Shown one piece after another: positions 8,201 through 62,717 of a stretch of DNA of 64,000 bases. The DNA lies in the NCBI GenBank assembly GCA_002633005.1, contig NMRA01000272.1, forward strand, positions 507,581-571,580. Direction: 5' to 3'. Made by a program: the position numbers and the translations under genes. The notes beneath the pieces were generated by a model, which was not told the origin of the DNA, searched no databases, and saw nothing but the letters and a program-made list of their open reading frames with translations. Position 1 is the first letter of the stretch. Each line of letters starts with the position of its first letter. The stretch is from Phoronis australis (taxonomy: Eukaryota > Animalia > Phoronida).

Positions 8201-8383
8201 CACCCACATAATTTGAACATTGAGGGTTGTGCATGTCCGCAGAGGCAGATCTATACAGNGCGCCACTTACTTGGAATGACTGGCTATATTCTGCGCTACT
8301 CGGCTTGCGATAGAGCTATAGCACACGATCTGCCATAATTCTCAAGACGATGCAACACATACATACACAACCCTCTCTCCAAG

Positions 8384-8683
8384 ATGGCGGCTGAGTCCAG
8401 TGATCTTGGCGCTAAGCAGCGTAAACAAAGTACTCACCACGAACACTGTTGCGTGCCGAAGTGTGTGAATGATAAGCGAAAGCAACCAGAATTGTATTTT
8501 CTCTTCTTCCCAACTTACGGGACGCTAAAGAAGGTATACATTCACGAAATACGACGGGATCCTGGACCTCGTTACAAGATTTTTCGCCGACTTGATTGTT
8601 TGCAATCGAGCGATTTTGAGATTCGGGTCGAGATATTACCATCGTCGATTTACCGGGATTCATTTGCGTGTTCCATTCGTTAG
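8384..8683 (+). pseudogene. Degenerate THAP zinc-finger ORF, probably from a DNA transposon
   Basis: HCCVPKCVN...LYFLFFP...HEIRRDPG fits the THAP CxVxxCxN / FxxFP / IRR pattern. The conserved W and the final CSxHF motif are eroded. Confidence 0.55.
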
Positions 8684-11873: not shown

Positions 11874-12010
11874 TTAGTCTGTACTTAGATGAACTTCTGA
11901 TATTTCAAAATTACTGGAACTTAACCAGCCCGTGTAGCAGTCGCCAGGGCCCTCCACTTTGAATGCCACCGTCGTGCTTCCTCGATGCGGCAGCTCACAC
12001 ATCCCTTCAA
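11874..12010 (-). CDS. Exon 11 (terminal): CTHRC1-like repeat 3, part C
   Basis: Acceptor tattttgcag. Reads (V)EGMCELPHRGSTTVAFKVEGPGDCYTGWLSSSNFEISEVHLSTD*, resembling VEGLCEG...GDASTGWNSVSRIIIEEL of vertebrate CTHRC1. Not in the ORF track. Confidence 0.88.
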
Positions 12011-15000
12011 CTGCAAAATATGGTCTTACATAATACCAATTGAGAGTATCTTGAACTCATAAAGATAACATTAAAATCAGGACCCTATTTTTGAAGAACA
12101 AAACTTACGTGTAGGAACTAGGCCCCCGAACAGCCAACATAGCCACACAATTTGCACAATATTCCATCTTTTTCTGAGAAATAGAATGCGCGCAAGGTGC
12201 AAGTAAGTACCCCAGTGTGGTCATCCTGAGTTCGAGTATCTTCATTTTATCAGAATCTTCGCTCTTCAAAAAGTATTTTTCTTTTCCAGAAGACAATCAA
12301 GCATTACATCAAATCAGGGGACTGTGTCTCGAACAGCCTATTGTCTTAGGGCTAAAAATCAATGTATGGATGGCTCAGTCTGATTCAAGTCAAAAAGTCA
12401 GAAAATCTGCCAAAACTTCAAAAGACAGAAACCCATAACCTGCTCGGGAGCAGCTAAACAAGTCAACTTTGGGGTACAGAATCTTCGAGAAACACTCCCC
12501 AGTTTTGCCCCTACTTACCTACGGCCGGTTGATGGAGATCGTGATCATGTGACTGGTAAATAATTGCGCGTATTGGTCCAGGAGTCGAGCACTCAGTATT
12601 GTTGAACGTGAAATACCAGAAGCAGTGGGTGCCAGTGGCGTCGGGTCGACGGTATACACGTAGAGTACTCATCCAGCGTACCTTGAGGGCGCTGCGGCTT
12701 GACAGCTTGTTGTAGGTTACTTCCTGTAAACATACAGCAGTGTAATAGACTATAGGTTCCCATGCTGAGACTGTCGAAAAGAATATCCCGTGACACGTGA
12801 TCTGTCGTAAAAAGTAGGGTTTCGTAAGTAAGAAACGAAGGCTAGACCTCTTAACATGGGTGCAGAGTTGTTAACTTTAAGTGTCGCACGGTAAGAGCAG
12901 AACATACATGTATGCACGGTCACATTCCGCATATACTGAGCTGATGTTAGTTTACAGGAAACTGCGTAGACGCAAAACTTGATGTGACTATTCCAGTAAT
13001 ACCCTGTCTTCGTATTTTACAAGTAACATAGGAGAATTGGGAAGAACGACTATGAAGGCAATTAGATTATTGAAAACGATAAAGTATTAATTAATGCTTT
13101 TGACATGCTCGGAAAATAGGTATGTTAAAGTGTGCTATTATTATCAATACGAGATGTCTGAATTAAGAAATAATATAAGGACTGTTGGGCATTTCAGATT
13201 ATAAATATTTTACTTTCGTGTGATTTTGGAATTGTCAGCAGTTGGAGATGAGACTGTATTTTTAACATTCTTAAATGACATTAAACATCAGATGTGGCAC
13301 GAAAGTGTATCATTATTAAGCAATACATTTATATAGATTATTCGAAGCTACGATGATATTATAGCATTATGTTTTAAACCCAAAATGTGCTATGATACGG
13401 TTAAAATGTAACAACTGTTACATTTTATGTCATTGTTACATTTTACGTTGCTAGGCCTCTCCTGAAATGTTACAAGTTGTTACATTTTATGTAATTGCTA
13501 TGTCGAATGCACATGCGAGAAATGTACCATTGTTACATTTTACGAAAGGAACGTCATATTTCATGTTTTTGCATGATATTGGTCACACGGAAGAAAACCG
13601 TTGACACACTTAACGCCTTCTTTCTTGGATTGTGCGAATGAAATTCTATCAAATGTGCCAGGTCGAATTTATAGATGTGTCCCTATGTGCTTTACATGGT
13701 TTTTAACATGATTAGTTTCATGCTATAGTCAAAATGCACAATGTAGTTTCAACTGCACACGAAAGGAGTTTCCAGGATCAGGTAACAAGTTTTTTTATTG
13801 TTGAAGCGTTCTTGCAAACTTTTGTTGACGCTCAAAGGTCATAAATCAGTTGTGTATCCGGCATTACAGTAAAAACACTTCCCTTAGTAAGCACAAAAAT
13901 GAGATCGTACTTGGCTAATATTTATCGTATTTGTTTGGGAACTAACGACCATAACAAAGTTTTTCATGGAGAGTTCAATTTCGGAAGTCAGTTTGATAGA
14001 AAAAACACCAGTTTTAGTCCATGATAGTTTGGTTTATTTCGGTCAGTGTTTTATTGCCTTGGAGTCATCGCTAATGTAGTAATTGTCTGAGTTATATAAA
14101 GCTTCAAAAGTTATCTGCTGGATAAATTTGATTGTTGCATGACGTCTGGTGCATTGTTCAACAATAACAACGTGACGCGTGATAATGCGACGTCATTGTT
14201 GCTATTCAGCGTATAATTTTATGCATTTGGGTCCTGCTCCACACAAAAGGAGTAAAACCAATGTTTCTGTTGCGGACAGGTTCTGTCTATAACCTTAGTT
14301 ACGAATGACAATTTCTTAAAGACATTTTGGTGGAAGGAAGTAAAAGCACGCATTTATTTGCCGGCAGGTTGACAAATTTTGCCAAAACAACAGCAAAATA
14401 TCGCCTTTGAGAAGGGCGAGCCAATAGTGGCGGCACAGTAACGTGTTTTATACATCTTAAAAGCTGAAAGAAATATAATTGTCCCTATGATGTCAAACCT
14501 GTCTGAAATAGTAGTGGTAACGACAGGTCAAACCGTGACGTGTATACATAAAAATGGGATGCCTATCTGGGTAAATAGAAAATATTTTGCACTTTGAAAG
14601 GACATAATTATTTTGCTCAAACCTGGACAGGTCTAGGTCGATACAGGTACTTTAAAGGGGCAATAGTCCAAAAAGCTGTTGTCGGCCTTTCGGGCTATAA
14701 AAACATGCACTTTCTCTTTCTATTGTCTTTTAAGGTAAAATATGAATTAAAATTACTATTTGATCAATGTTCATTAGTTCGAAGTACATGTAAATAAAGA
14801 CAAAGTTTGGACATTCTAGTATTAATGGACGTGAAGTCACGTGTCTCACGAGGAGCCATTTTTGTGTTGTAGCTCGCACATAAACGAATTTGGCATATTT
14901 ACCCTTTTGATACATTGCATAAAATGCTCATATTAAACTTCGACGTTGGCGGTTTTTGTTCCATACAATACACTTTCAATGAAACCTTGTTCAAATCACT

Positions 15001-21000: not shown

Positions 21001-24000
21001 GCGACATCGACGAATACGACAAAACTGACAGCAAAGCTGATGCACTGGCAACGATCAAGATGCTGCAAGTATTTACGGGGCAAGTGAGGAAGTATTGAGC
21101 ATCACTATTAGTTACACCACAGATACTCTTACTAAAAAGTTGGAAAATTGTGAGGGAGCTTTTGCGTGTTGAAGTACAACACCGCTCTCGTGGTTATCAC
21201 GAATCCATTTTCAGGTGACCAACGTACTTTAGTGGTAGGAAAAAGAAATAAGTTATCTTATGTTCCAGCGGTAAATTATTCCACAAATGCAATCCTGCAA
21301 ATAATTGATTTTTAAACGATCGAGGGTAATTACGGAGAATTATACATTCTAATAATGGCTACGTTCGAAAAACTATTGATCCCATGAATAACTTTATGTA
21401 AATAAAAATCAGTGCTGTTTTCTCAACAGTTAAATCAAGAATTTCCAAGACTGTAATTCTACTAAAACCCGTGATTCAAGAACAGCTTGGTACTGAAGTC
21501 TTTCAAGTTTACAAAGTGAAGTCAAATTTGCGGTACAATAGATAGTCCATGTACATTCACATAAAAATGAGATAACTTAAAATAGTTGTAGATCATTTTG
21601 AAATGGCAAATGGAAATACGATTAGAAAGTGTTCTGAATGATTTGAACTGTTTTTGAATTTGTATAATTACATGTATCAGCACAAAATGATGATATTCAC
21701 AATGATTTGGGGATCAAGTAGAACACCCAGGTGCTTAACTGACACAGTTTAATTAAGGAACGATAGCATCATTCAAGTACAGTCTAGAAAGTGTGTCGAT
21801 ATTGTGTGAAGCTTTTAACGAGACCCTTTTGTCTTTTGGATAAGGAAAGAAAATAGACGTATCGTCAGTATACAAAAATGTTTCAGAATACAGACTGTCG
21901 GGTAGGTCATTATTAAATATTAGAAAAAGCAACGACCCCAGTGCACTGCCTTTTGGAACACCAGCTTTAACATACGCAATTGGCGATTCATCAGAAACAA
22001 CACCATCACACTCAATGAATAGGTTCTATTTAAAAGATATGACTGAATTAAACCGTGCATAGTTACAAAGAAGATCACGAGGAACCGACTCAAACGCAGA
22101 ATCCAAATCCAGTAAAAACACTACGAACCTTGTTATTCTCACGAAATTAAGTGATCATCGTGGTAGTTTTGCATGCAGCACAAATAAGTTAATAAAACGG
22201 GAGTATAGCACGGTAATGGGACGATAATAGGTTACTACAGTCGTAAAGTCCTTTTCATGCACATGAATCAATAATCCACATTTCGATCTCGTTGGAAGGA
22301 CACCAGAATGAATTGGTTACTGGAATATTTAACATTGGTCGTACCTATCGTACCCAAAATTCATTACCTTGGCCTAAAATGACAGAAGCTGTTGCTGACA
22401 ACAAAAGAAATGTCAAATGTGTCGTCAGTTATCCTTCTTATTGTGAACGTTCGCAAAGAAGTTTTATGCCATTGAGATTTTAATCTCAAAGGTTGGTTTG
22501 GATAACACTGGTCAAAACAAACGTATTTGTGATCATAGTGCTCGAAGACGCCTTCATCTGTCCAAAATGAATTTTGATACCACTCAATTTTATTAAAACG
22601 TGTCCCCAGACAACCCCTTTCAATATTAGTATTGAATATATTCAAAAAGCAAATATACTACACTTCATTTGTTTAAACCTCAACATTATTTTTCCGAACA
22701 CATGTAAACAAACTGATAAATACTGTCACGCATGTTTTGCATGGTGCATGCCCTTTCTTTACCAAGTTTAAGGTCAACAACTTTTAAACTTGGGATAAAC
22801 CGTTTTAGGTGTACTAAAAGTAGACTAGTCACGAATTTTTTTTACTCTGGTTCCTGCAATAGATGTATAATCCACATTTTCCTAGGCACCTGAAATTGGA
22901 TTCCAAATCTGTGATTGGGTAATGTATTGTTTACAGGGGCCTCGAGATGGCGGCAATCGCAATGATGTTGGATTATAAACATCCTCTTTGAGCTAGCAAG
23001 CTAATTTTGTTCTCCATACCATGTAAATTTCCATCGAAATGAGGCGGTTAACTATGGGAAGAGTTGAACACCAATTTGACCAAGTTGTCAGTTATAGCAC
23101 AAGGTACAGCAGCGCTGAACGCTTACCTTGATGACTCCGTCGTTTTTGTCGTCGTTTAGGGCGTACCAATAATGATGAGCCAGGTTGAATTGCGGAACAC
23201 GGATGCTTGTACCATCTGGTCGTACATCTAAAAGCAAAACAACTTCATAAAATTGGAACGCTCGTGGTTCTCACATCCTTTTAAACGAGCGTTCTCACTT
23301 ATGCTTCATTAATTCCTGGTGCCGAAGAAGCAATGACAAGTGTGGAAGGCAGTATTTGACTTACATGCACTGATCTTTGAATTCAGCCTAACTTCCTCGA
23401 CTATAATACGACTGTAACCGTTCCAGCCTTGGTAAGGTCTATAGCTGCTGTATCCACTGCACGTTTGGTGCCACAGCTGGATTTTCACGTTTCCAGCGGG
23501 TATGCCGTAACAGATTCCACCAACTGAAATACGATTTAACCGGTCAGAATTGCTGGTTCGTGATAACGCCATGTAGTTATAGTACCCTGGGGTGACTTAC
23601 ATATAACCGAAGTTCCCAAAGTTTAATGACGTCTTTAAGTCATAAGGACGTCCATGAACATTAACGGCCGTGACATGAAACATTCCAGTTTTTACTTCAA
23701 AAGAGAACTCAGATGATGAACACACAAGGAAAGTCCTTGAATTGTCTCTCTAAAAATAAATCATGTAGTGAGGCGAAGTCCAATAGAATGTTACTGTTGA
23801 CATTACTAAAGACTTCACAACCAATAACCAATTGTTTGACGACATTGAAATACTCGTTGTGTAACGCTCATTGACAATAAAACCATCAGAAGTACAAATA
23901 CTACAGCTGGTTAAGAACCTCGTTAGGTACCAAAACTTTCTTCGGTCATTGGGAACCTTTTCAAGAAATTTGTCTAGTGATTTTTTGAATTAAAGGGGTT

Positions 24001-27000
24001 GTAAATCCCTCTTCTCTCTCTCCACCAAGTTTTTGATTTACACCACTTAGCTCAAATAATTGATCTTATAGAGGCATAGAACGCGAAAGCTCGTCAAAAA
24101 TATCTTTTAAACAATTCCTGACGAAAGTATTCTAGTACAAACGAATTCACTTTTCCCTATGAGGAAATTTCCAGAAAAAATCACACACGTATTTGAAAAC
24201 GCGCTAAGGAAAAACTCTGTGGTTACCACACAGTTTTTAATCCCCCTCCCACTTACGACTGACAAATGTGCACATGAGCTCACGGCCAGTTGCTTGAAGT
24301 CGCTTACGGCCAAAGGTCACATTTTTCATATAAGTGAAATGTTCTACGTCTATGTCTTGCAATACCAAATACGGAAACGTGTTTTGCTTTGTGGGAAGAA
24401 AATCGACGAAGTGACGAGCAGTTGACAGTTCGTTTCTTGAAATTTGAAACTAAAAGAAAATACTTTGATTTCAACAGAAATTAAAAATATTTAGGAGCAA
24501 ACTCTTAAAATACCCGGTGAACATGTTGAATTCTGTTTCAGTAGCAGCAGACAACCACTTTAAATATTGTAATTTAGACTGTTTATCGAGTTCCAAGCCT
24601 CTTTAAAATTTCCTTAGTTATATTGGAGATGTTATTTAGGGCTTCGAAAGGACTAAGAGATTCTTATGACTTGAGATTGGGTTACGTAAGTTCGCTTGTA
24701 ACGGCGTGTCATTTTATGGGCGTGGTCTCGGCGAAAAACTTACTGGCAATTCTTTGCAAACCCAAAAACAATTCTCACCTGAGCAAGAAACGAGCCGATT
24801 CAAGTTACCGGTCTAAATAAAAATTTCGATTCCTTGGGGTAACGCGGGAGCTCATAACCACTTTAACGACTGGGTTGTTTCAAAAATATAACTTTAAATA
24901 TTGGCAACATCCATAGGCGGATTTATGGGGGGGGGGCCCAGGGGGCCCGCCCCCNNNNNNNNNNNNNNNNNNNNNNNNNNNNNNNNNNNNNNNNNNNNNN
25001 NNNNNNNNNNNNNNNNNNNNNNNNNNNNNNNNNNNNNNNNNNNNNNNNNNGGGGGCTCAAATCCAATTTCAAGTGTCAAATTCGGAACACGGCGCATTCG
25101 TAACGGAACTATGGCTAAGTATAGGCTCTCCCGCGATATCCCAGGCGACCGGCAGTGGCGCTGCGCACTACGACTCAGTTTCCGTCGTCTGCTCCACTGT
25201 GCAATGAAGAAAATTTACTTCATTTTTTAAAGAAAATGGAACCTGAGTGACGATGAAAAATCAGAAGCTGGTGGTAAGATGGGAATTTTAATCGAAGCCT
25301 TAGAAACTCGCAAACCATATGTTAAGACGATTTCCAAAGCAATCCCGTCATTATTGCCAACACGAAAAACGGATTTGGTCTTTTGGGCATTTTAAGACTA
25401 TTTCAAATACGACAAATTTGTTAAGAATCGATGGCACTAAACGTGTAATAAGCATTACAAAAAGAAGTAGGTTTCGCGCGCAAACGCTGTGGACCATAAA
25501 CAAGTAGGTCTCTTAGTATGCCATTAGTAGTTAAATCGTGGTAGTGTAGTGGTAACGCACGCGCGCTCTATGTGCAAGGTCGTGAGTTCGAGTCTTTGTT
25601 GCTTGCAGTTTTTCCTGTTTGACACGTTCTCCGTGTTTTTTTTGTCTTTTTTTTGGATAATCAAGAAAAATACTTGATTTTTAGAGGTAAAAACAGAAAA
25701 ATTTCCTGGGCGGGAGGGGGGTTTGCCCCCTCCCGACCTCCCCCCATTCGGTGCTATGCGCATCTATCGTGGTTCAGTTTGTGCAAATGTTTACAGCCGG
25801 ACAAAATGTTGGGCCCCCCCTTGCGATATCCTAGATCCGCCACTGACATCAGCAAAAGTAAACTGGCGCGTGAAGTGGCGATGATATTGTTATTATCAAT
25901 AATAAAAAAATCAGGCTGAGTTCACAGGTACACTGAACAGTTCATGTAGTTTGAATCAGACATACACGAAACCTTAGACAATGTAAAGACCTGGAAGCAG
26001 TAGTGAAACAAAACAAAGTAACTAGACCGACTCACTCATGGTTGTGAGTTACTTTACCGACAAGCCTGTGCGTTTAGCCAAATAAAGTGTATACACAAAA
26101 CTAATCAACTGTTACTTCTAATGACTTCAAACTCGAGCAAATACAATGCAGATTTACCATTGTATACAAATAAAAATGACGACGTCAATTGCTTAAAGTA
26201 TGATCAGTTTCTTTCCGTAGTACACCACCGCTGCCGCTAGTAGTCGCCTTAAACGTGGCAACAGCAAGAACAACGTCACAGTATAACTCAACACTGTGTA
26301 AGTAAATGAAGAACATCAAGAGCAACCCGTAATACTGTAATAAAGGAAAACGTTACTTTCGCGTTTTTCGTCAATTGTTAAAGGTAACATGGGCGGCGCA
26401 CCATAGGGGCTGGGGTGGGGGGTATTGCCCACACTTTTTTTCAGTGCTGCGCCGCCTGAGGGTAAAAGGAAAGTTGTGACGTAGACTGAACAGAAATTGT
26501 TAAGGCATGTTAGCCCGGCCATTTCATGATTAGGCAGGTAAAAGGAGAAACACCTCGTGTTATATTTTACAATGAAATTCTTACTAGGAGCGTCTCTTAG
26601 TTGGTTTCCTTTATCGTCTGAGTAGTCAAGTTGTCCTAAGACAGCGTCTACTTTCCCGGGATTTGAACACTCCACGTCGTTAAATTTGAAATAGTATCTC
26701 CCACATCTATGTGTTCCTGAAGTAGGATGCTCTTGTAGCTGACCGCGCCAAACCACACGGAGTCCAGTTGATGAAATTCGTTTTGGAAATGTTATTACCT
26801 AAATATATGTATAAAACATGTATAAGAAAACACTTGACCATTCCCGCGTTGCTTATCATTCTGTTGGTAATAAACTTCCATTCGCTAGTAAAAGCCTACT
26901 TGCAATTAGATGACGCTAATTAGTTACAAGAGCAAATGTGGGCGTTGACTTGCGCCGTGTGCATTTCACACAGCACATAATCAGGGTGTTCGTTGCAAGT

Positions 27001-48000: not shown

Positions 48001-51000
48001 CAGTGAACCCTTCCCTTACCGAATCGCCGATATTGGCCCAATATCGTTTAAGCCGGTAAACACGGACTTGATCACAAGAGGGCAGTTAGAGGCTTGCCCA
48101 CAGGAGGGCCAGGCTTACTATTTTAACGCTAAAAACGTTTTTCTTTAAAAAATTACCATCAAATGTTTGACAATAAAATTTTCAATTTTCATAAAAATAC
48201 TTAATTGCCAGCAGATGTATTAGAGTGTAATTTTATTTTTTAAATGAAAATTTCCACCAGATGACCCTCATGAAAAAACCGCCAATTTGAGAAAAGCGAA
48301 GGTTGTTTTTGAGGTCCAAATTGGTGAAAAGGGTATCACTTTAGACAATTTCGTGGAAAATGGTCAAATGGTCACAATTATAAACCACATTATGTCAGGA
48401 AAACTTCAGTGTGAATCTCGGCGCGGGCGAACACCATTCAGAATCGATGATGCTGTTTCATTCATTAACAACAGGTGACGTTGTAATCTTGAGTTGAGCT
48501 AACATGGCGGTGTCAACCGGGAAACAGTGCGAATCGAAATTTGAGGATAAAATACGGTGCACAAGCGGTAGGGGAAACATTCATACATTTTTGGTAAGAT
48601 ACTGTAACGTTGCGAGGAATCGAATGATACCAAAATCATGTGTGTTGGTCAATGTCGTCATATTGTAAACAATTACCTATAATATGTAGGAAACCATAGC
48701 TTACTGTGTTCCTAAAGCAAAAAAGTCTTTCACAAGTGGGTTAAGAAGATGGGATCGACACCAAACTACAAACTATTCTATTTTGCACGAGCAAGAAAAC
48801 AAAAATTGAAAAAATTACCATCGAAGTAGTTTTTTTCAACTTGTGACAGGACATTTTTGCCCCTTAAGCTAAGCTGAAAAAGTGGCGTTTTAAAAAGGGA
48901 GCAACTTAGTACCTTGAAAATGACAAAACACTTCAAGAATTACTATGTCTTAGTGAAAATGTTTCTTTTGCTCCAAAAGATTTTGAAATAATTCTGAAAA
49001 AGGAAAATTGCATAACAAATAAATTCATAATTAACAAAAACCACAAACATAGTCCTTTTCAGAGTATTTCGTTATTTTTAAAAAAACCTGTGAGGTTATG
49101 TGAATTATTATTCTTTTTCCCAATGTTTTCACAATCTTATGTTGCACAGCATTTGATAAAAATGATAATATATATTTTTCATTAAACAATATTTGATTGG
49201 ATCCTTAAAGTTTAAAGAATTTTAAATCAATTTCATTCCTATCAAATAATATAGAAACTGAGGGGTGTCTAGTTGTGTTGGTGACTTTCCGAAAAGAGTA
49301 TATTCGTATTTTAAGATGTTTTAATGTTCTGCAGCGTTTAGTGAACATTTCTTGTAATGAAAAATGTAATTTTCTAAAAATAAAACTAATCCCAACACCA
49401 CCAAGAGGTAGGAAAGTAACAAAAATAGTTTTGAAGAAAATAGAAAAAAGACTCTATCTTCAAAACTGAAGTTAATTTGAATTTTAAAAATATTCTACTC
49501 TATTTTAATGAAAATATTCACCAGTTTTGACTGGTTCTGTAAAGAACATTTGCCCACCAATTAGGATCGAATTTAGTTTGAAACCTGGAAAGATCAACAT
49601 GGTTCTTGAAAAATAACTGAAATTATCTTTTTAGAAGTGTTCCTAAATGGAAATGGTGATATAAAGTGAAAAAAGTACATTTTCTCATATTTTTGTCAAA
49701 AAATAAAAAGTGTACACTCACGGTTGAAAGCAGAGTTTTTAGCAGTTCAATATGAATGTCATTAAAATCGGTTCAGTAACGGTCATTTATCAGCTGAAAA
49801 TTTGACTCCTACGGTAAGTCACAAGAATTTACCGGTGAGTGAAAAATATGTGAGTGTTGGCTTTACTTCAATTTTTAAAAATACTCATTAATGCCCAAAT
49901 ATTTGTAATGGATACCAATAGAAAGAAGAAAAAATAAATATTTCACTGGCATACTTTTCATTTTCCACCACTTTGAGTAATAATTGATATGAGCTTGTGA
50001 ATATCATGAAAAATGGTAAAATGTCACTCTTGTTGAATTTCCGCCATATTGGATTGCTCACCCTAACTTAAAAATATACGCATCGGCTTTCTCGGAACAT
50101 TTTTGTGTGCTTAATTTGACCGCAGATTTTTTGCAAACTCGCTGGAGCAGGACACCTTGAATGGTGTTAAAAGAAAGAACAATTGCAAATGGTTTGTTGA
50201 AACCCTATTTTGTGTAAATTTATTGAGTTTTGTGTTTAATGAGGTCGACTGAAGTGAAGCACCCGTGGAATTCCTTGTCCCGTGTGTCATACCTTGTAGT
50301 ATTATATACTGAAGCTGAGGACACCTTTGAATTGGTCATGGTTTGCTGAACCCTTGTTTTGTGTACATTTATTGAGTTTTGAGTTTGATATGGACGGCTG
50401 TAGTGACCAAGTGAAGCACACATGACATTTTTAGTCCTGAGTGTCATACTGTGTGGTATATATTTATAGTGTATTGGGTAGGATCAGAAGCTGAGGGCGT
50501 GTGCTAGTTATACCACAGGCGTCCTCAGCCTCTGAGTCTGACCGTACCAAATATAATACAAAAAGGTCGGACACTCGATTTTTGTGTGAAGTGAAGCACT
50601 CATGGAATTCCTAGTTCCGAGTGTCAAGCCTTGTGGTATTATATACAGTGTATTGAGGATGATCAGAAGCTGAGGATGCCTGTGATTTACAACACGGTCC
50701 TAGGAATTTCACAATTACCCATAAGTTAACCATATAATAAACATAAAAGGTTGGACACTAAGAATTTGCCAAGCCTAGGCTGCCATCTTCAACTGTTCTA
50801 AATCCAAGTAAAATCTGTGTGCACCTCTCTCAGACTGGTATTTAATAAACAGGGATATTCCTGACCAAATTTGAACCTGTGCCCTTTTAGTGCCCCTGAT
50901 GATAAAAAGTGTCTTTTTTCAAAAAGTTGTGTCCGGCAGACTTGATGTAATTAAGTGGTAACATATGAAACAAACCTCAAGGGCATTGAAAATTAGAACA

Positions 51001-54000
51001 CAGTCATGCTCACTTAAAAGCTGTAAACAGGAAATGGTGAGTGACGTCATTGGTTATCGAGGAACAGATAAACTCAAGTGTCTGGATTATATTTGCCAGT
51101 TTCGCGCCAGCATGACTCTATTTGACTTTTTTGAAGTAGGATAACAAAGAATATTTCTAGCTAAGCAATTGAAAATAGCTCCTGTGCATCAGTTTTCATG
51201 AAACACCTGCTAGTATAGAAAAATTTAGAACATTGCGAGGCTGAGACACCGCCTGTAAGGGTGTGTGTCTTGGGGGGGGGGTTCCTCTTTGATTGAATTT
51301 TTTGTTTATTTTCGTAACTCTTTTTAAGGCTTTCTCCGTAAAATTAGTTAACTACAGAGTTTACATACATGTGGCTGATCTAGGGATGAAGTGAACTTAA
51401 AAAATTGCTTCTGTAAGCTGTTTCTCCCATGCAAAGTTGCTTAACTTAAGTTTGAATTCGACCTCCGGAACTGTGCTGTAGGGCTTTAAAGATGGTTATG
51501 AACTTCCATCAATTTTTTATATGCCCATTTTACATCATAATCCAAAACAATGCGGGCTATTGGTTATTTTATGAAACGTAAACAATCCCCGTTTTGTTGC
51601 TGTGTTTACCTCTTTGACAACATTGCTGAACTCAGCCTCGTCTCCAGCCACAACATGGTGCTGATCAGTTAAGGTACTTGAGGCTTGGTAATGAGAAATG
51701 AAACGTGTCAGAATTTTTACAGAAATCATGGACAAGCTTCAGTTGATATAAAGGTTCAAGATAAGATCTCTGCCAGTTTGCTAAAATATTTATTCCGCGC
51801 TTTTGTTTCTGGGAACCTGAGAGTTTTTCATGAAAATCACGAATCAAAGCACTATATTTTAGATTGTATAAACTAGGCCCCTACCACAACCTGGTGTACA
51901 TCGTCAACATATTTGTACACAAATCGCGGTATGTAGAATCCTTCGAAATCAAGAACACTGGTCCAGCTTCTTTTGTGTGGATCGAGCAAGGCAATTACCG
52001 CATAAGCTATCACTTCAGAATAAGAAGCTGGTTGGATTATTATGAAATATTGTGGACTAAAATTGGTAATTTTTCGATCTGCTTGACTTCTGAAATTGAG
52101 TTTCCGCGATACCAGTTGATGAAAGTAGGTACACTAGGTACCTGGAAAAACTAATTTGGTTTATAACTTGTGCCGGAGCCTTAACATTGTTCAGTCGTGA
52201 GACCGCTTCACAGTAGATTGCGTTGTAATCCAATCTTGAAAACCACTTCCGGCGGGAGTTAACACTGTATGAGAACTATGTGCAATGTAAACTCTCATTC
52301 AAATTCTACTATCAGCCATTTGTGAGACATGATGCTCCGAAGATAGACAAAGTTGGACATTTGTCTAGAGTCAAGTGAGAGATAGTTGAGAAAATAGCGG
52401 ATGCCAAATCGATGTCCATTGAACGTGACCATCAACTTGTTGATTCAGTTCGTGTCTCTTTTCCACGCCTTGACGTGAACTGTTAGCTCTACAATCATTC
52501 ACTCGAGGCAGATATGAGAGCTCGTAGCTCTTCGTTTACGGTTGCCATAACCTCTGTTTACACACTGCTGCAGCGTACAAGTTGTAGAGTAGGTGTTTTT
52601 ACACCACAGTTCGAGATGATAAGTCGAAAACGATTTCTCGGTCAAAAGTATAATTTTTTTTTTCTAAAAGTAGAAGTGTTCTGGAATTTGAAATAGGCAC
52701 ATTCATAGCAAAGCAACGATATGAGTAACATGACCCAGTTCCGCTTGGTATCAATGTTCACGATGTTACAGTTTCCTAAGTTATCCCTTCCTTTTGGTGA
52801 TATGGAACTCGTGTAGTTATAATTAGCTCGCTAGAACTGTGGAACGAGACTGTAACACTGCCACGGAAATGGACGAAAACTAGTGTGTCGTAACTTCTTG
52901 GAAGGAAGCTGTTTTTATGCCTCTTTTTACTACTACAATGAACACGACGTGAGAAAACTGCCGTTGTGTGGAAATGCCAACATACCAAATAATAAAGTTT
53001 GACTGCAACCCCACAACTAGGGCAGGTTAATTTATCACGAACGGACAAAAAGTGCACATGGAACCATATTGGCAAAACTCGAGCATTCAGAAAATTCAAA
53101 TTTGAAAATTTGAAGGGACAGCTTCCGTTGATTAACTTTTTCTTTATTTATCCAATTAAATCGACAATTAGAGTGTTTGAGACACCCCGACACACGCGTT
53201 ACCCTCCTGATGGCACTGAAATGCTAACACGTAATAAGATTGGCTGTGCTTTACGGATTCTTCCTAAATTAGTAAATATGTTGATCATCCTATGTTGTAA
53301 AACTGGTAAAAAAATAGGTAATGTTATTGTTAAGACTCAAGGTCATGTCATAATAATTGTAATGCAATATAATTAAGCACCTCTGTGAAAATTTCGGTGC
53401 ATATCAACACACGAATATTAGAGCCCACTCGTCTAATCTTTGAAATCGAAATCAAAAACTCAAAGTTATAATATCTCACATTTTCGCAATACTTATGTGC
53501 GAACACAAGCCAAGTGTTCATTACCTTGTATTCACTATGTTATGGTCTTGACGCGGATGAGTATCTAGTCTTAGTGCACAACAGCTGACCCCTAGAACTG
53601 AGGTACAGTACAATCTTGAGTAAAAGCTTGCAAATTCCAATTAGAGGCCGATATTTAAAGTTCAGACTGGAAAGCATGGCTTTAGTGCTTGGATTATAAT
53701 ATGCACACCAGAATCAAACAGTCATCCACTTAAAGTGCAAAATATACATTTATCTGACGTCGCACGAATGAAGGCAGAACGTAAATTGCCAATAATAGTT
53801 TAGAGTTCGATTTCGAGTACAACTGAATGACACCCCGGGCCCAGGTATCACCTGTCTCGGTCTTTGTTTCATTTTGTACATACTTTGTAATTGCCAGTCA
53901 TGACTCAGAGATTTTCATTTATTAACCATGTTTAAAGAACATTATTTTAGAAGTCTTCGTTATGTTGGTTTGATCTAAAATCCCTTTCAGCCGAAGTTTT

Positions 54001-57000
54001 TCTTTAAATGAAGCGGGCAGAGTGTCTTAAAAACGTGACAGTGATAACCGGCTGATTTCAACTGAGGTAAGGAACCGAAGAGTTTGACTTGTCTTCGCTG
54101 TAAGTGTTGATACGTGAAGGAGGTGGTATAGTGACAACAGCGAATATGCCACAGGACACTATAAACGTTTTTAAAAAGTCGCACTCCTGTTTACCGCAGC
54201 TTATGCACTCACCCCAGCACATAGGATCGGGTGGTATAGAACACTGGTAACCAACCCTAGAATTACAGTCAGTGCAGTCTCGTCCGCACACTCCTGCCTG
54301 GGAACATGTAATTTCGCAAGGAGAATCCGGCTTTACCTGTAAGAAAGTGTGATAATACTAAATTAAAATCATCAAAAGACCATCAATACTACTAGGTGCA
54401 ATGTTTTCTTTTGAAAATGATCGCTTCCATGCAAGCATGCTTCTGAAATTTCCTTCTCATGCTTGTCGTAGACTTTTCAAACGTTGCAAAATTAAGATAT
54501 GAGCTAACTTCCTTTCCAAAGCCAAATCTTCCAAAATGCTAGAACACACAAGAACTACCCAATCGGCGAAAGTATAAATTTTACGCAGTGAGAAAGTTTC
54601 GCTGGTCATGTTAATTAAACTACTGATTTTTAAAAACTGTCTTGTCACTTTTTAATTGGTACTAATCACGTGTTTCCCAGAAATTGCCTGAAGACATTAC
54701 ATCTAGACCTAATCGTATACATGCACAGATATGTGAGTCGGCACATGCATACCTACATGTATCTACTTACGTACATACACAAAACATACCAAGATTTCGT
54801 CTTTCATTTTGGGCAGCGTCTGAGAAAAGTGTCCGCTCGACTTCCATTGTTTCGAGCGGACGCTCATATGCGCATAAATTGCATGCCCACTGACCGCAAT
54901 AGGCATGTTTAGCCTAAGGCAATGATCTTTATCTAATTATGGTCTTGCGTACGGATTGCCTGCCATCGCGTATCTTGGATTTCATAGAATTTTCAGTCTG
55001 GGCATGAACGTGATTGAACTCTTCATAAAAAATAAAAATTTGCCCGTTTTTTAAGGGAAAATTTGACCCAGAATTAAAGGAAATATCCTCGTTTAAAGCA
55101 AACTTGAACAACATTTAACTGGGGATTCCTTTGTGTTGTGAATGGTTTATTACCTGATTCATGCAAATGAAATTTAGTAGTGTTCATAACATCTTTACCC
55201 ATCTAATATAACAGAATTTAGTTTTAACTAAGCGTTCTTAAACTCTGTTTCATTGTTATTGTGAGCTGCACCGAACAATGTTATTGCGCGGGCACAAATA
55301 GCGGTGTCCTAGGGCTCAGTCACATGGCATAACAATGTTCAGTCAAGGCGAGAAGGGTTTTTGTTTTGCTGCCGTCAAAATGTCGGAGAGCTAAAGCGTG
55401 GACTAAAACGAATAATAGGCTCCTACTTGAATCAGGGAGCTCGGGAGGGTTGTACACAAGTGTCTTTTGTTGGTTGGTCTGCTGAGTTTGATCGATTGGT
55501 GAGCAAAGACGAAGTTCTGTCACCGGCAGTTCCATTCAATAACAGCAACGAGTAGAACTTCAACCGAGGTGAGTCTCATTTTTATGAAAAGCTACAACAT
55601 CGTAGGTTCTTGTCTTGACTTCTACCCCTCTTCTCGAGTGCCGATCCAGACGCAGAGTGCCCGGGTGGCAGGTCCGTTAGTCCCTGGGTTTTCCATTTTG
55701 GAAGTCGTGGGTGGCGTTGCCTACATGTACGGCTGCGCGCAATTAACTGCTTAACTCGGGCTTACACAATTTATCTTTCATACCTTCAACCCTTCGTAGA
55801 ACCGTATAATATTGATAACGAGTACCTATGGTAGGATTCACGAAAGTAGGAAAATCGAGTATGTGGATGTGGTATATCAGGGAAGAATTCCGCTGTTGGT
55901 TCCCTCAGTTCTCTTTCATGCAAAATAGCTATCAAAGTTTTAAGGAAACTGTGATGCCTAAGGTTGTTGACAGAACTGCGTTATTGGAGATAACTTTCGG
56001 GTGGAATATTTCCCTGGAAAATTTCAGACAATTTTAACCTTGTTAGGAATGATTTCAACATTGGATTGATGGGGTGTTATTTCTTATTGTTGTAATTGAT
56101 TGAAATTCTTTCGCATCCAAGAGTTTTCGTGGTTGGGTATTTGTCATAGGTATAATTTTAAGGTCGCACCCGGCGTCATTGGCACATAAAAATTTTAATT
56201 GATGCTCTGGAGTTGCTTTTCTTGGGCCAACTGACACATTACATTTGTGTCGACTTTGCATGGTGTTCCCGTAGCTTCTCTTAGTTGATTTGAGGCCATG
56301 TAGGTCAATTGATCCAAGTGCATGTTTACTTAAAATGATCCATGTTATCATCTGCTTTCCGTGGACGATATCACTGGTCATCTACACTGAAATATAGAAT
56401 ATTTGGCCCTGCTCACGTCTTAGGCCCTCAGAATTGTTGTGCTTTCAAATTCTTTGCTGAACCCTACTATATACAAATCCATTTTAAAATTAATTTTCAT
56501 TCGTTTCAGCTGTTGTTTGTCTGAGTTTCAAGGCTTATAAGACACTGGATTTCCTTTGTCAGTGAACTAAAGGTTGAATGAAGATTGTCTGCAAACAACA
56601 TAATTATACAACACCTTACAATGCAATGCTCACAGGAGTGCCTATGCTTGAAAGGACCGGGTGTGTCTATGATAGCAATCTGAGGTTTAATCAGAAAGGA
56701 GAATGAAACTTGAACCAAGAGTGTTTTAGAGATAACAGACTGGTTGGAAACCAAGATTAGTGACTTGTTGGACACAGTGGGTCACTGAACTATTCAAAGC
56801 TTGATGGTCTGTCTATTCCAAATTAAATACGCACAGTAAATGTGAATATTGTTTAGTATAATTTATTACTTTTGACGCCTTTTCATTCTGACTTAACTCG
56901 GATCTGAGTGGAGCGTCGAAGTAAACTGCAAGTAACTAAACCGTTCATACCGCCTTAGGTAGTAAGCGGACTTCGAAATACACTGTAGGTAACATTGTTG

Positions 57001-60000: not shown

Positions 60001-62717
60001 CATCGCAGAACCGATTGCTAACCTGCTCCACACACCAGCAGATGTAATCTCCAGAGTGCGTGAATCGCTAATTACAGATGCCGAGATTGTGCAACAGCAG
60101 GAGAGATGGGCAACAAAGCGCCTCATAGAGCGAGGATGGCAATACGGAGATTCAGCAAAAACTCGTATCAGGGGAAAACATCGAAGAGTGTGTAACCAGC
60201 ACAAACTTGGTTGCATCTCCAAATTTGAGGAAGGAGGAGGGCCAGAGACTATCCCGGTGCTTACCCTCTGACGTCACCACAGAAACCAGAAACCAGAAAC
60301 AGTATAATAGCCTGCACGGTAGGCACATAAGCAACGCCTCTAAGCCTCTCATTTGCGGTATTCATTTGCTTAATTTTCGAGCATCGGTTTCTCTTGCATT
60401 GCAAAATTTAAAGCTCACGGATTTTGCTAGGGGTAAGAGATATGTTAATGTATTGAACATTTTGAAGCAGTAAGCATGGTCCATTTGTGTTAGGAGTAAA
60501 ATTACCAATGACAAGAATTATCACGTCTCTTATAAAGCGGCATGCGGAACGGGTATTTTTAAATAATATTACAGCGAAATCTAAAGGTTTTTATGACGGA
60601 GGTGTTGAAAGTATTTTTAAATAACATCCTACTTTCTCAGGACTAAATTGCTAAAATGTTGTAACTAATCATACCACTAGACTTTGAAGGAAACAATGAT
60701 ATTTTCCAAACTGGCAATGCTTGGGTTGAATCGTGCTTGTTGTTACAACTGTCACAACAGTATGAATGAGCCTTTATTGAGGGCTCTATATCAATCGTAA
60801 ATTGTTGTGTTTACATCAAAGCTTCAAAAGACTTAAGTGAAAATGATAGATTGTCAAAATACTGATGTAATTTGATTTGCTGGCTTTGGTTTGAAAGTAG
60901 TTCCCTGCTTGGAGCAATGGTCATCATCCTGCATAGCAGGCCTCACTGGCTAATGCACCATGAACAATCAATTAGATTGGTTCAGCTGATAAAGACTTAA
61001 TGAGTCCCCAAGAGTCTTCTCACACCAGGCCCGAAATGTATAGTAATTTTCATTTATTGATTTATGATGACATATAGACAGCCAAAAATGGCCTTTCAAT
61101 TTGTTGTTTGAAATCGTGGTTTTGTTTGTTTCATTTTCGTCTGATACCAGTTACCAAAAATATTGGAAAGCTGCAGATTTTACAGTTCTGTGGTGACCTT
61201 GGACGCATAATTTCCTCACTGAAAATTTAATTTATACACTGGCAGTCACAAAAATGTAAAACGAATTATGATTCAAAGTTTAAAGCAATGTTTAGGTGAA
61301 AGGAAATGGTTGGATTATACAGACACTATGGGTGTAAGAAATCTTAACACCTTTCAATTCGTGCCTATAACGGAGAAAATGTAAACGTCAAAGCAGTGTA
61401 AGGTATTTTATACTACATTAGAGGTGAATGTATTGCTGTATTGTGACTCCTCTCCACAGGTCATTCATTTGATACTCCATATGCCAACTACTTACAATTT
61501 TACTCGTACATGTACTTCCTAAATGCGATGGAAAGTATATGTGGAAATATCAAGGCTAAGTTCCGTAGACGCAGGAATCTCTCAAAGGAAGCTAATGAGA
61601 TCACATGCTTTGTTTGTAATCCATGGCGATATCCCGAGATATCTTGCGTGATGTTGTATTTTCACCAGGTTCTCTTGTCTACGGAACGCACTCTGAAAAG
61701 CATTCCATGGACCCAGCTTCTTGTAAGACCTTACAACATCATGCAAGTGAACGGTGGGTGTTTTTATGCTGAGAAGAGCTTGTATCTGACAACGCACACA
61801 ACACTACATTTGCCGCATTCGTTCAACTTTGAAAAATTCTGTGGACAGAACAAAACGTTGCTTGCCATTTCATACAAAGAACGCTACACATGACCACAGA
61901 AACTTTATTCTCTTTCATATTTTAACCCTTTCACCAATATAGAAACCAGGCCCAAAAGGGACAAAATGTGTTTTCAAAAACGCAAAAGTTTCACCTCAAA
62001 GGCAATGCTCAATACAGCCATTACTAGATTCTGAAAGCAGATTTACTACAGAATTTACAAGTGTAGCCCTAAAATACTGACAGCCAATCATTTTTTTACT
62101 AATCTGGACTATTTGAGGAACACCTGATTGCACAGTATCTTCATTGCAATATTACACTGCTAGATAGAAACGCTTTCCTGAAGAATAGGCACTCAACAGT
62201 CTCTAGGTTCTCAACTCAAACATCTAAATATAGTTTCGGGTCTTTGATGCAAAACAATTTTAAAACCTAAGGAAAAGTATAAATGTTAGAAACAATGTAT
62301 GTTACATGTATCTTTGTGCCAACGTAGGAATGACCACATTTCTTTAAAGTATTTGAAAGAAATACCTACATCCCACGTCGGTTTTGAGAGGACGATGCCA
62401 CGCTGTCCGTTCCAATGTCCCTCCTGCTTAGATAAATCCACTAGGGTGCTGTAGTTTACTTTGTCGAAGAGAAAACAAGTTTCTGTCGCGTCATTCTGAA
62501 ATGCAGAGATACAACGCCTGTTTTTGTTGCATATAATAGCACATTCTATTTCACTTCTTGCATTACTCAGTTTGAGCGGGTCTCTTGGCGGCATTAATGA
62601 ACTGACGCGCGTTGCATCGCGCGTACTTGAAAAATTACTGCAAACTAATACTTCGATAGGAAACGCGATTTTGACGAAGTAAAGCGCAAGAATCAACAAA
62701 ACTTCCGGACTCATCAT
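11874..62717 (-). CDS. Assembled 11-exon gene, 627 aa: signal peptide + PAN/apple + Cys-rich module + three tandem CTHRC1-like C-terminal domains, no collagen segment
   Basis: join complement(62370-62717, 54195-54336, 36270-36379, 35557-35761, 31775-31942, 28667-28761, 26585-26798, 23365-23523, 23127-23227, 12519-12723, 11874-12010). All introns GT-AG, phases 0,1,0,1,1,0,1,1,0,1. Total 1884 nt with no internal stop. Exons 3-11 are strongly supported; the links from exon 1 to 2 and 2 to 3 rest on phase and strand only. Confidence 0.7.
12519..12723 (-). CDS. Exon 10: CTHRC1-like repeat 3, part B
   Basis: tttacag|...|gtaagt. Reads EVTYNKLSSRSALKVRWMSTLRVYRRPDATGTHCFWYFTFNNTECSTPGPIRAIIYQSHDHDLHQPAV, close to ECTFTKMRSNSALRV...[21 protein letters not shown]. 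Confidence 0.92.
13393..16237. mobile_element. Non-autonomous DNA transposon with ~170 bp internally repetitive TIRs, TG...CA ends and a near-perfect 6 bp TSD
   Basis: 13393-13562 is an imperfect inverted copy of about 16088-16237. Both ends start TGATACG and contain repeated TGTTACATTTTAYG. Flanks are gtgcta and gtgctt. Confidence 0.75.
15615..15725. repeat. Degenerate (ATA/ACG/GTA)n trinucleotide repeat
   Basis: taataacgataacg...agtagtaatagcagtaatagtagtaatag, read directly. Confidence 0.7.
16580..18130 (+). mobile_element. Decayed CR1/L2-group LINE ORF2 (RT and C-terminal zinc finger), antisense in intron 9
   Basis: Across frameshifts: LNNRILGFCEQNNILVDEQNGFR, FVDIEKAF, GVRQGDILSP, LLHADD, WCKKWRMVVNMAKT, YKYLGC, PILDYGSSVWG and HLETGRY...RLCFCC...EDELHFAFDC. 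Confidence 0.9.
18772..19469. repeat. Pair of 130 bp near-identical direct repeats (18772-18901 and 19340-19469) flanking a 438 bp spacer
   Basis: ccatcttgcagagtcttag...gattacgataaat occurs twice; I see two substitutions between the copies. Confidence 0.85.
20579..20709. repeat. Mixed (TGC/TGG/TAC)n trinucleotide microsatellite
   Basis: ctactactgctggtggtgctgctgctggtggtgctgct..., read directly. Confidence 0.9.
20855..21215 (+). pseudogene. Possible pogo/Tigger transposase acidic C-terminal remnant
   Basis: AEILRNLL, then a D/N-rich tract, a frameshift, and ESDIDEYDKTDSKADALATIKMLQVF. This resembles the EAL..L..L..F tail of Tigger-type transposases. Weak. Confidence 0.3.
21300..22400 (-). mobile_element. 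Decayed CR1-type LINE reverse transcriptase
   Basis: YYRPITVL, FLLDLDSAFESVPRDLL, SYLLNR, and AGVPKGSALGSLLFLIFNNDLPDSL...FLYTDDTSI (the YADD equivalent). Boundaries are approximate. Confidence 0.8.
23127..23227 (-). CDS. Exon 9: linker and CTHRC1-like repeat 3, part A
   Basis: ttttgcttttag|...|gtaagc. Reads (Y)VRPDGTSIRVPQFNLAHHYWYALNDDKNDGVIK, aligning with [21 protein letters not shown]. Phase 1 in, phase 0 out. Confidence 0.88.
23365..23523 (-). CDS. Exon 8: CTHRC1-like repeat 2, part C
   Basis: tatttcag|...|gtaagt. Reads (I)GGICYGIPAGNVKIQLWHQTCSGYSSYRPYQGWNGYSRIIVEEVRLNSKISA; GWNxxSRIIxEE is the CTHRC1 C-terminal signature. Confidence 0.93.
24912..25845. mobile_element. GC-rich MITE-like composite with an assembly gap (N run 24955-25050)
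   Basis: Left end cataggcggattta and right end tagatccgccactg are imperfect inverted termini; G/C runs inside. Confidence 0.5.
25535..25605 (+). repeat. tRNA-derived (SINE-head-like) fragment
   Basis: A-box-like tagtgtagtgg and B-box-like gagttcgagtc at tRNA spacing. The acceptor and anticodon stems do not pair well. Confidence 0.45.
26388..26458. mobile_element. 71 bp MITE
   Basis: Inverted ends catgggcggcgca and tgcgccgcctg. Flanks aaggtaa and agggtaa resemble a decayed TSD. Confidence 0.55.
26585..26798 (-). CDS. Exon 7: CTHRC1-like repeat 2, part B
   Basis: tatatttag|...|gtaaga. Reads VITFPKRISSTGLRVVWRGQLQEHPTSGTHRCGRYYFKFNDVECSNPGKVDAVLGQLDYSDDKGNQLRDAP. Confidence 0.92.
28667..28761 (-). 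CDS. Exon 6: linker and CTHRC1-like repeat 2, part A
   Basis: cttttttttaatag|...|gtaagt. Reads (E)KTTCSALTSFNVKQAFWRTEAAVSNAGVGFA, with an NxKQxxW motif. Phase 1 in, phase 0 out. Confidence 0.85.
30450..31030 (-). mobile_element. 3' remnant of a CR1/L2-group LINE
   Basis: NSWASE, VKKILFGYGFGDVWY, KQRFVD...W, RQLTKFRCSNHMFVIE and EGEVHFLLECAMY across frameshifts. Same C-terminal motif set as the 16.6-18.1 kb element. Confidence 0.7.
31775..31942 (-). CDS. Exon 5: CTHRC1-like repeat 1, part C
   Basis: ttttttctattttag|...|gtgagg. Reads (V)DGICKGLAAGDVTIDVYVRNCDGYTGKSAYNSQTVFASNTYARLMVREVDMSTRL. Confidence 0.92.
   Translation of the reverse strand: MTVYAKDWRPVTSLLMSTYVTVMVIREKVLIIHRLCSRQTPTRGLWFEKWICLRD
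32071..33711 (-). mobile_element. Kolobok-like non-autonomous DNA transposon with a THAP remnant
   Basis: TTAA on both sides (32067-70 and 33712-15). Purine-starting short TIRs AAGGGAACTGTATT and AAGGGGACTATAGT (11/14 match). Minus-strand MPFCMAPGCSNSSKK...IAYHR from about 33417 is a THAP N-terminus. Confidence 0.65.
34665..34956. mobile_element. PIF/Harbinger-type MITE
   Basis: TIRs gggtatgtttcatgaaa and gggtctgtttcttgaaa, with a 3 bp CAG duplication at 34662-64 and 34957-59. Confidence 0.75.
35557..35761 (-). CDS. Exon 4: CTHRC1-like repeat 1, part B
   Basis: atcttccag|...|gtaaag. Reads TRVYPKKSSTSGLHVTLLTDFRGAKGCSSACCGTLYFKFNGTKCPASDVIDIVHYEDNVALNYIKVEE, retaining CxxACC...YFxFNG..C. Confidence 0.92.
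36270..36379 (-). CDS. Exon 3: linker and CTHRC1-like repeat 1, part A
   Basis: attattttcag|...|gtacgt. Reads (A)EEDDCSEELMGNIRQFYIGKTNQVWTTDRATEHKLQ, with C-x6-N-x-R/K-Q spacing identical to exon 6. Phase 1 in, phase 0 out. Confidence 0.82.
36959..41997 (+). mobile_element. Internally deleted Sola3-like DNA transposon (~5 kb) with TTAA TSD
   Basis: TTAA at 36955-58 and 41998-42001. Inverted ends GTA..AGTCCACG...AGCGGCAAGGTGGGGG(G)TCAGCC. Coding relics TCPNHRY...EHPLH (about 38025-38100) and ISKGWVWKS...PEDMSKRICSLRNESGEKVFAKDYWLIPQQVQS (about 38680-38890). The superfamily call is from remembered motifs. Confidence 0.65.
42183..43090 (-). mobile_element. Academ-like transposon 3' remnant with Cys8/CXC zinc finger
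   Basis: PSLIDHSWLLGGGAL, a frameshift, then YKCKKNMCAGKLSLCSNAGSNCTEVCSCDNCSN. Candidate TAG-starting terminus tagagtgttttcaaaa at 42183. Confidence 0.5.
43900..47038 (-). mobile_element. Decayed Sola3-like DNA transposon with DDE-core and C2H2 relics
   Basis: SGNAGCYHS...RYDFSESQNGKDLCDRKIAPLKQH (45460-45903) and FPCTQQGYSNFF...LGRHLDVGNH. The terminus reads ttaa|GAGGCAGTCC on the minus strand (47038). 43920-44050 is a diverged inverted copy of about 46530-46680, consistent with a long TIR. Confidence 0.7.
50150..50778. repeat. Degenerate tandem array (about three units of 150-180 bp) with an internal hairpin
   Basis: aagtgaagcac...gtgtca...gaagctgagg recurs at about 50252, 50409 and 50589. 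Inverted pair tcagaagctgagggcgtgtg and cacaggcgtcctcagcctctga at 50484-50534. Confidence 0.65.
54195..54336 (-). CDS. Exon 2: Cys-rich module (9 Cys in 47 aa)
   Basis: actttcttacag|...|gtaaac. Reads VKPDSPCEITCSQAGVCGRDCTDCNSRVGYQCSIPPDPMCWGECISC. GC-richer than its flanks. Phase 0 in, phase 1 out, matching exon 1 and exon 3. Confidence 0.75.
59145..60300 (+). mobile_element. 5'-truncated I-group (I/Ingi/Nimb-like) LINE with RNase H domain and (CAGAAAC)3 tail
   Basis: DYGLHL...KLQRIQKQAMRIVT, one stop, then RNase H motifs ATDGS, SSFRAEC, LTDSLS and YIPGHCGISFNVKADELA. Stop at 60271, then cagaaac three times at 60280-60300. Confidence 0.85.
62370..62717 (-). CDS. Exon 1: signal peptide and PAN/apple domain
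   Basis: Hydrophobic leader MMSPEVLLILALYFVKIAFP. SEIECAIICNKNRRCISAFQNDATETCFLFD is the PAN core C-x3-C-x5-C-x11-C-x-L. Donor gat|gtaggt (phase 0); an alternative phase-1 donor g|gtattt lies 4 nt further on. Confidence 0.85.

Follow-up and report, generated by a model that had tools for sequence, protein, structure and literature searches.

The gene and its transcripts

The 64,000-nucleotide stretch of DNA from the phoronid Phoronis australis that we analyzed (the window: GenBank assembly GCA_002633005.1, contig NMRA01000272.1, positions 507,581 to 571,580 of the forward strand) carries on its minus strand, from 62717 to 11874, what is very probably a single gene of 11 exons. It specifies a probable PAN domain and a cysteine-rich module followed by three tandem copies of the C-terminal head of CTHRC1, a protein associated with tissue repair and cancer (the Pfam domain CTHRC1_C, PF25815). 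An AG acceptor and a GT donor accompany every exon, and each CTHRC1 domain is spread over three exons with a phase pattern that is identical across all three domains. The exons are as follows:

Exon 1, 62370..62717, minus strand: start codon, predicted signal peptide (approximately residues 1-20) and PAN/apple-like domain.
Exon 2, 54213..54336, minus strand: cysteine-rich module; the donor at 54213 is preferred (621 amino acids), whereas an earlier note on this DNA took the donor at 54195 (627 amino acids).
Exon 3, 36270..36379, minus strand: final cysteine of the cysteine-rich module and strand 1 of CTHRC1_C domain 1; aligned with relatives.
Exon 4, 35557..35761, minus strand: middle part of domain 1; PF25815 at 27.1 bits.
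Exon 5, 31775..31942, minus strand: end of domain 1; PF25815 at 21.7 bits, below the cut-off.
Exon 6, 28667..28761, minus strand: linker between domains 1 and 2 with an invariant cysteine, and strand 1 of domain 2.
Exon 7, 26585..26798, minus strand: middle part of domain 2; PF25815 at 38.6 bits.
Exon 8, 23365..23523, minus strand: end of domain 2; PF25815 at 41 bits.
Exon 9, 23127..23227, minus strand: linker between domains 2 and 3 (24 residues) and strand 1 of domain 3.
Exon 10, 12519..12723, minus strand: middle part of domain 3; PF25815 at 45.1 bits.
Exon 11, 11874..12010, minus strand: end of domain 3 and stop codon; E 1e-9 with a profile of the fetched domains, no Pfam match on its own.

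The exon set of the earlier note splices to 1884 nucleotides, that is, 627 amino acids and a stop codon, without internal stop codons. Its exons, splice sites and open frame stand; its length probably does not. A further in-phase donor of exon 2 lies at 54213; it yields 621 amino acids and removes a six-residue insertion relative to the related proteins described below. This donor scores 6.6 against 5.6 for the one at 54195 and makes the cysteine spacing to domain 1 equal to that of five relatives. Against the three best relatives, the shorter model scores 262 versus 258, 245 versus 239 and 160 versus 158 bits. Since the insertion disappears and the scores against relatives rise, we judge from the sequence that exon 2 probably ends at 54213 and that the protein has 621 rather than 627 residues.

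Transcript evidence was drawn from 18-19% of the reads of three raw RNA runs with the same species label and from one contig set, over the stretches 23050-36450 and 35450-54700; short reads of this kind show splice junctions and not the whole molecule. Summed over the three runs, five of the ten junctions appear in the reads, on the expected strand and with the predicted bases: exons 3-4 (eight reads), 5-6 (five), 6-7 (nine), 7-8 (six) and 8-9 (seven). Two of these, 5-6 and 8-9, lead from domain 1 to domain 2 and from domain 2 to domain 3, respectively; hence, the three repeats are not separate genes, a scenario that the earlier note had listed as refuting its reading. The joints listed for 23050-36450, 15 of 16, do not include junction 4-5; six of the gene's junctions lie in this stretch. 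Exon coverage is low on 35450-54700, intron 2 is flooded by repeat-derived reads, and the contigs of the RNA contig set do not cover the exons. The gene is lowly expressed in the three runs.

Domains, relatives and the number of heads

Pfam recognizes CTHRC1_C on five of the 11 exons taken singly, with exons 4, 7, 8 and 10 at or above the 27-bit cut-off and exon 5 below it, and a local profile recovers three complete domains at 103-134 bits. The domains are mutually 26-30% identical, and the proposal of three diverged CTHRC1 C-terminal domains is thereby borne out. The C1q domain PF00386 has no match on the 11 exons (E up to 1) or on 24 relatives (E up to 0.01). Runs of at least four Gly-X-Y triplets are absent from all six frames of the window, and the minus strand between exons 1 and 3 has none of at least three, in agreement with the initial observation that no such coding stretch lies there; full-length relatives contain 3 at most. 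A profile of the family run over 2193 six-frame open segments of the window detected nothing beyond a single PAN exon and three sets of domains. Two candidates for the introns were thus looked for without result: a hidden collagen exon, by the Gly-X-Y scans and the family profile, and a second family gene, by the profile.

In the N-terminal region, the 19-residue windows of highest hydrophobicity begin at residues 6-7, with none elsewhere in the top six and a peak at 6-25; the position of the first cysteine matches in relatives. The protein is likely secreted. The four core PAN cysteines encoded by exon 1 align with those of relatives. The cysteine-rich module of the window protein has an insertion with two extra cysteines compared with its relatives, and the module gave no fold match when the models of two relatives (see below) were compared with 48,161 solved chains. 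A single cysteine stands directly before strand 1 of domain 1 and of domain 2 in all eight aligned proteins, and none stands before domain 3. The former two, encoded in 36270-36379 and 28667-28761, could pair as a disulfide that staples both domains.

A profile search of 1.84 billion representative sequences returned 897 matches, the best 150 of which were considered; the window's own protein is not among these 150. In a word-index search, a three-exon profile matched two proteins among 2041 candidates, and exon 1 matched none among 70. Several relatives combine a PAN head with three CTHRC1_C domains. They are "uncharacterized" proteins of the brachiopod Lingula anatina from approximately 7-8 loci, some of them partial (XP_013395411, XP_013412409, XP_013419728, XP_013417801, XP_013399537 and others), and an unnamed protein of 611 amino acids, P0007, encoded on a contig of 2632 nucleotides, which suggests a spliced mRNA. 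In P0003, P0004 and P0007, Pfam finds PAN_1 above its cut-off together with three CTHRC1_C matches, and PAN is above the cut-off in P0018 as well. The relatives are colinear with the window model over its whole length, with 28-32% identity across as many as approximately 640 columns. Exon 1 aligns to the heads of P0004, P0018 and P0007 (E 1e-6 to 1e-4), as do residues 1-165 to those of relatives (E down to 9e-9), the E values in both cases referring to a small database. The main support for joining the PAN domain to domain 1 is that the relatives carry the same order of head and three domains. Linkers are of 19 and 24 residues in the window protein and of 17 and 20-25 in relatives, the 24-residue linker between domains 2 and 3 recurring in five of seven of them. 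The paralogs within one genome are many and diverged, at 28-67% identity. Thus, the Lingula proteins and P0007 share with the window protein the PAN-type head followed by three CTHRC1_C domains, equal linker lengths and approximately 30% identity; these relatives are known as database predictions only, and P0003/P0153 and P0159 differ in having no cysteine-rich module. A model from the bryozoan Bugula neritina named CTHRC1 (P0030) has two tandem heads without collagen and groups with the animal triples in a quick tree; it may be a partial member of the animal triple family.

To what extent three is the rule can be gauged from a census of 176 fetched proteins, which reaches only the best 150 of 897 matches and in which 29 proteins have at least two domains. 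Four of the 29 bear collagen (2, 2, 4 and 4 domains), seven start inside a domain, and a further one has its two domains far apart. The remaining 17 are collagen-less tandem proteins: 14 with three domains, one with nine arranged as three triplets, and two with two. Hence, 15 of the 17 collagen-less tandem proteins with an uncut N-terminus have three or nine domains. The nine-domain case is an unnamed protein of 1395 amino acids (P0156/P0006); in P0156, the third and the sixth domain are followed by longer gaps. Two proteins, P0005 and P0046, one from the sponge Oscarella and one unnamed, carry four heads behind a short collagen, and P0005 additionally has a fibronectin type II domain in its middle.

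A careful tree was built from 11 three-domain proteins, excluding fragments, isoforms and the collagen-bearing set. In 96% of 200 bootstrap trees, the domain-2 copies are gathered on a single side; domains 1 and 3 form no resolved grouping, and the animal family is separate from the non-animal triples with support of 99/95. The non-animal tandem proteins (P0008, P0011, P0141, P0162 and P0156) resemble the animal ones in lacking collagen and in having three or nine tandem heads; they differ in their N-terminal parts, their shorter linkers and in their domains, which group within the protein or group. That the non-animal domains group apart from the animal family points to separate triplications. 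Within the animal family, the conservation of the linkers makes an old triplication likely, although the tree does not prove it.

Predicted packing of the heads and rival readings

AlphaFold2 was run on two relatives, P0004 and P0007, with 66-row alignments that contained no rows from the window's exons; both are approximately 30% identical to the window protein. The P0004 model has a predicted local distance difference test (pLDDT) score of 83 and a predicted template modeling (pTM) score of 0.78, and the P0007 model 80 and 0.78. In both models, the jelly-roll heads are predicted to be packed as a C1q/TNF-type trimer. Compared with the 48,161 solved chains, P0004 is closest to 5hzf (Z 26.2, root-mean-square deviation [rmsd] 3.4, 336 aligned, model residues 168-601), followed by 4dou (Z 26.1), 5kca (24.4) and 4zch (22.1), and only then by a PAN/apple domain at Z 9.0. 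The top four for P0007 are likewise single-chain trimers (Z 25.8, 25.6, 24.1 and 21.9), the next match being at 7.0, and single C1q/TNF-type domains reach only Z 5-7 against the relatives' models. Foldseek likewise ranks 5hzf, 5hkj and 4dou first. These solved chains are engineered single-chain trimers of the C1q head (5hzf, 5hkj), adiponectin (4dou), Cbln1 (5kca) and APRIL-BAFF-BAFF (4zch), to which the predicted packing is alike at Z 22-26 over 331-350 residues. Their titles state a single chain for four of them, and 5kca we take to be an engineered single-chain construct. They differ in being man-made, the identity is 6-9%, and the likeness of fold shows no function. At the front of P0004, residues 39-123 match the factor XI/kallikrein apple domain 7qox (Z 9.0, rmsd 3.0, 78 aligned), and the PAN fold match of P0007 is at Z 7.0.

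When domain 3 of P0004 was docked as a separate chain on domains 1-2, the score was 0.43 against 0.04 for the best control, the runs sharing at least 92% of contacts with a partner pLDDT of at least 82. The docking tool rates this as weak support: among solved complexes, 51 of 78 pass its mark, as do 2 of 108 mismatches, and those passing with scores of 0.60 or below are only 5 of the 78 complexes but include all 4 passing mismatches. On the strength of the models, the three heads quite probably form a pseudo-trimer, which upholds for the relatives, at the level of prediction, the idea of the earlier note that three heads on one chain could rebuild a trimer without collagen.

Taken as a whole, the likely explanation is a single secreted, PAN-led chain whose three CTHRC1 heads form a pseudo-trimer serving as an extracellular binding knob. 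The secreted chain of approximately 621 residues would place its PAN domain and cysteine-rich module in front of three diverged heads, which would pack around a pseudo-three-fold axis in the manner of C1q/TNF trimers. The short linkers of 17-25 residues would take over the role of the trimerizing collagen helix of vertebrate CTHRC1. Three unlike faces would make the knob asymmetric and turn it into an extracellular binding site for one partner—a receptor, the matrix or a microbial surface—with the PAN domain binding a second partner.

Several observations weigh against this explanation. Junctions 1-2, 2-3, 4-5, 9-10 and 10-11 have no reads, including both that attach the PAN domain; 1-2, 9-10 and 10-11 lie outside the stretches examined, and 2-3 is missing from the joints listed for 35450-54700 (15 of 49). 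Read coverage of exon 2 is thin and lower than that of exon 3. The PAN matches of exon 1 are below the Pfam cut-offs (PAN_3/PAN_1, 19.2 versus 21.1 and 18.1 versus 21.4). Domain 1 is the most diverged, at 26-33% identity to relatives. The packing is predicted for P0004 and P0007 and not for the window's own protein, and the models may have been guided by solved C1q trimers, even if the identity to them is as low as stated above. The census includes isoforms and near-identical copies, and the ranking by which the best 150 of 897 matches were selected biases it; two of its collagen-bearing proteins have four domains. Finally, a clade made up of the window protein's three domains is compatible with the approximately unbiased test (p 0.117).

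The lack of reads for junctions 1-2 and 2-3 would fit a chimera, in which exons 1-2 come from a separate transcript and exons 3-11 are preceded by some other first part. The introns concerned are long (8.0 kb for intron 1 and 17.8 kb for intron 2), and the lower coverage of exon 2 relative to exon 3 fits such a split; we nonetheless regard it as very improbable, given that the exon phases are compatible, the window head aligns to the heads of relatives that also match the three domains, the window contains no other PAN or family exon, and intron 2 is mostly repeat. Improbable too, if less so, is that the heads act as separate beads along a string or pair with heads of other chains into trimers or networks. 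The four heads behind collagen in P0005 and P0046 show domain repeats outside a rule of three, the split-chain docking is weak, and, in the available text on a bivalve three-C1q protein, every domain is described as binding ligand alone (PMC10672478). Set against these are the two models at pTM 0.78, which superpose on single-chain trimers across all three domains, the conserved linker lengths, and the longer gaps that divide the nine domains of P0156.

The pseudo-trimer could alternatively act as a CTHRC1-like signaling modulator, in Wnt/planar cell polarity (PCP) or TGF-beta/BMP signaling, or as a structural protein of matrix or shell. We hold this to be rather unlikely, albeit the most serious of the three rivals considered here. 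Vertebrate CTHRC1 is tied to Wnt/PCP and TGF-beta/BMP in the portions of PMC7058181 available to us, and low expression in three runs is regulator-like. The many diverged paralogs in one genome would, however, be more in keeping with recognition families such as the bivalve C1qDC proteins. Eight family identifiers were not found in the supplement, as far as it was accessible, of a Lingula shell proteome (PMC13425148), whose two PAN proteins differ, with the proviso that identifier matching may fail. A role of the pseudo-trimer in recognition or bridging stands at about even chances with any other; it is favored by analogy with the diversified bivalve C1q proteins.

The window also contains repeat-derived sequence, among it the bulk of intron 2:

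Intron 2 repeat-derived bulk, 36500..52100, no strand assigned: reads 90-99% alike, on both strands, with a depth of up to approximately 200, far above the exons.

By the Gly-X-Y scan and the family profile, this block contains no family or collagen exon. Within it, two runs contain reads (9 and 10, respectively) that lead from 40791 back to 36502 across 31 other letters, as if 36502-40791 were a 4.3-kb repeat unit that is tandem or circular elsewhere in the genome, and 50181-50695 holds diverged tandem repeats of approximately 150-180 bases each. Also in intron 2, read starts are stacked at 53790 on one strand (53790-53830; depth 16-45, a few dozen bases wide and far above the exons), probably marking a short repeat. 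Fragments of reverse-transcriptase/zf-RVT domains below the Pfam cut-off at 17045-18205 (plus strand), 21756-22025 (minus) and 4683-5501 (minus) are remnants resembling long interspersed nuclear elements, two of them in intron 9. Weak THAP and CXC (TCR) matches below the cut-off, at 8339-8680 (plus) and 42829-43050 (minus), are likely remnants of DNA transposons. Two near-identical 65-base direct repeats lie at 63142-63269, approximately 430 bases upstream of the start codon.

Place among CTHRC1 and multi-C1q proteins

In the sections of Leclere et al. (2020, PMC7058181) available to us, Cthrc1 is defined by collagen plus head, the collagen helix trimerizes vertebrate CTHRC1, and the head is modeled as C1q-like and capable of forming trimers; collagen-less heads are reported from non-animals only, namely choanoflagellates, dinoflagellates and bacteria. 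Those sections make no mention of tandem or PAN-bearing forms, and each of the eight Lingula entries among places 1-26 of 32 has a single head. The accessible supplement yielded no match to three short motifs and three accession stems from the present family, which its wrapped and gapped alignments could conceal. When the PDB was searched by sequence with a CTHRC1 that bears collagen, matches were confined to the collagen part (35 sequences); hence, the CTHRC1 head appears to have no solved structure.

The window protein is not a CTHRC1 proper: it has the PF25815 domain, but it lacks the collagen repeat, carries three heads per chain instead of one, and has a PAN and cysteine-rich front. It shares with CTHRC1 the C-terminal domain family, a C1q-like sandwich expected in threes and, as a prediction from hydropathy, a signal peptide. 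A parallel in overall design is furnished by secreted, collagen-less bivalve proteins, mostly with three C1q domains per chain (smultiC1q; CfC1qDC-2 and HcC1qDC5), as described in the available parts of PMC6835236 and PMC10672478. The window protein, likely secreted, is likewise collagen-less with three jelly-roll heads in one chain; the bivalve heads are PF00386 domains, which none of the window's exons matches, and those parts of the two papers do not mention a PAN head. Our literature search, whose coverage left out most subscription journals, found no publication on the architecture of PAN plus three CTHRC1 heads. The statement of the earlier note that it knew of no described protein of this kind agrees with that search, although database entries do exist in the form of a small Lingula RefSeq family. 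The family is apparently small and undescribed in animals; its parts and the single-chain trick have precedents, and it is the combination that we have not found in print.

We tentatively propose, at somewhat below even confidence, that this is a family of animal proteins so far undescribed and enlarged in brachiopods, made up of natural heterotrimers of CTHRC1 heads on a single chain that would form a PAN-tagged, diversified recognition system parallel to the three-C1q lectins of bivalves. A natural collagen-free chain that holds the whole trimer would offer a simple route to the structure of the head and to testing the C1q-like proposal of 2020. Three different faces on one axis would allow asymmetric binding sites beyond the reach of a homotrimer. 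The definition of the family would be extended in that animals can use the CTHRC1 head without collagen. If the proposal is true, and given separate triplications in bacteria and protists, the CTHRC1 head would be a self-assembling trimer of the C1q/TNF type for which collagen is optional, and lophotrochozoans would have evolved a PAN-tagged recognition system from CTHRC1 heads.
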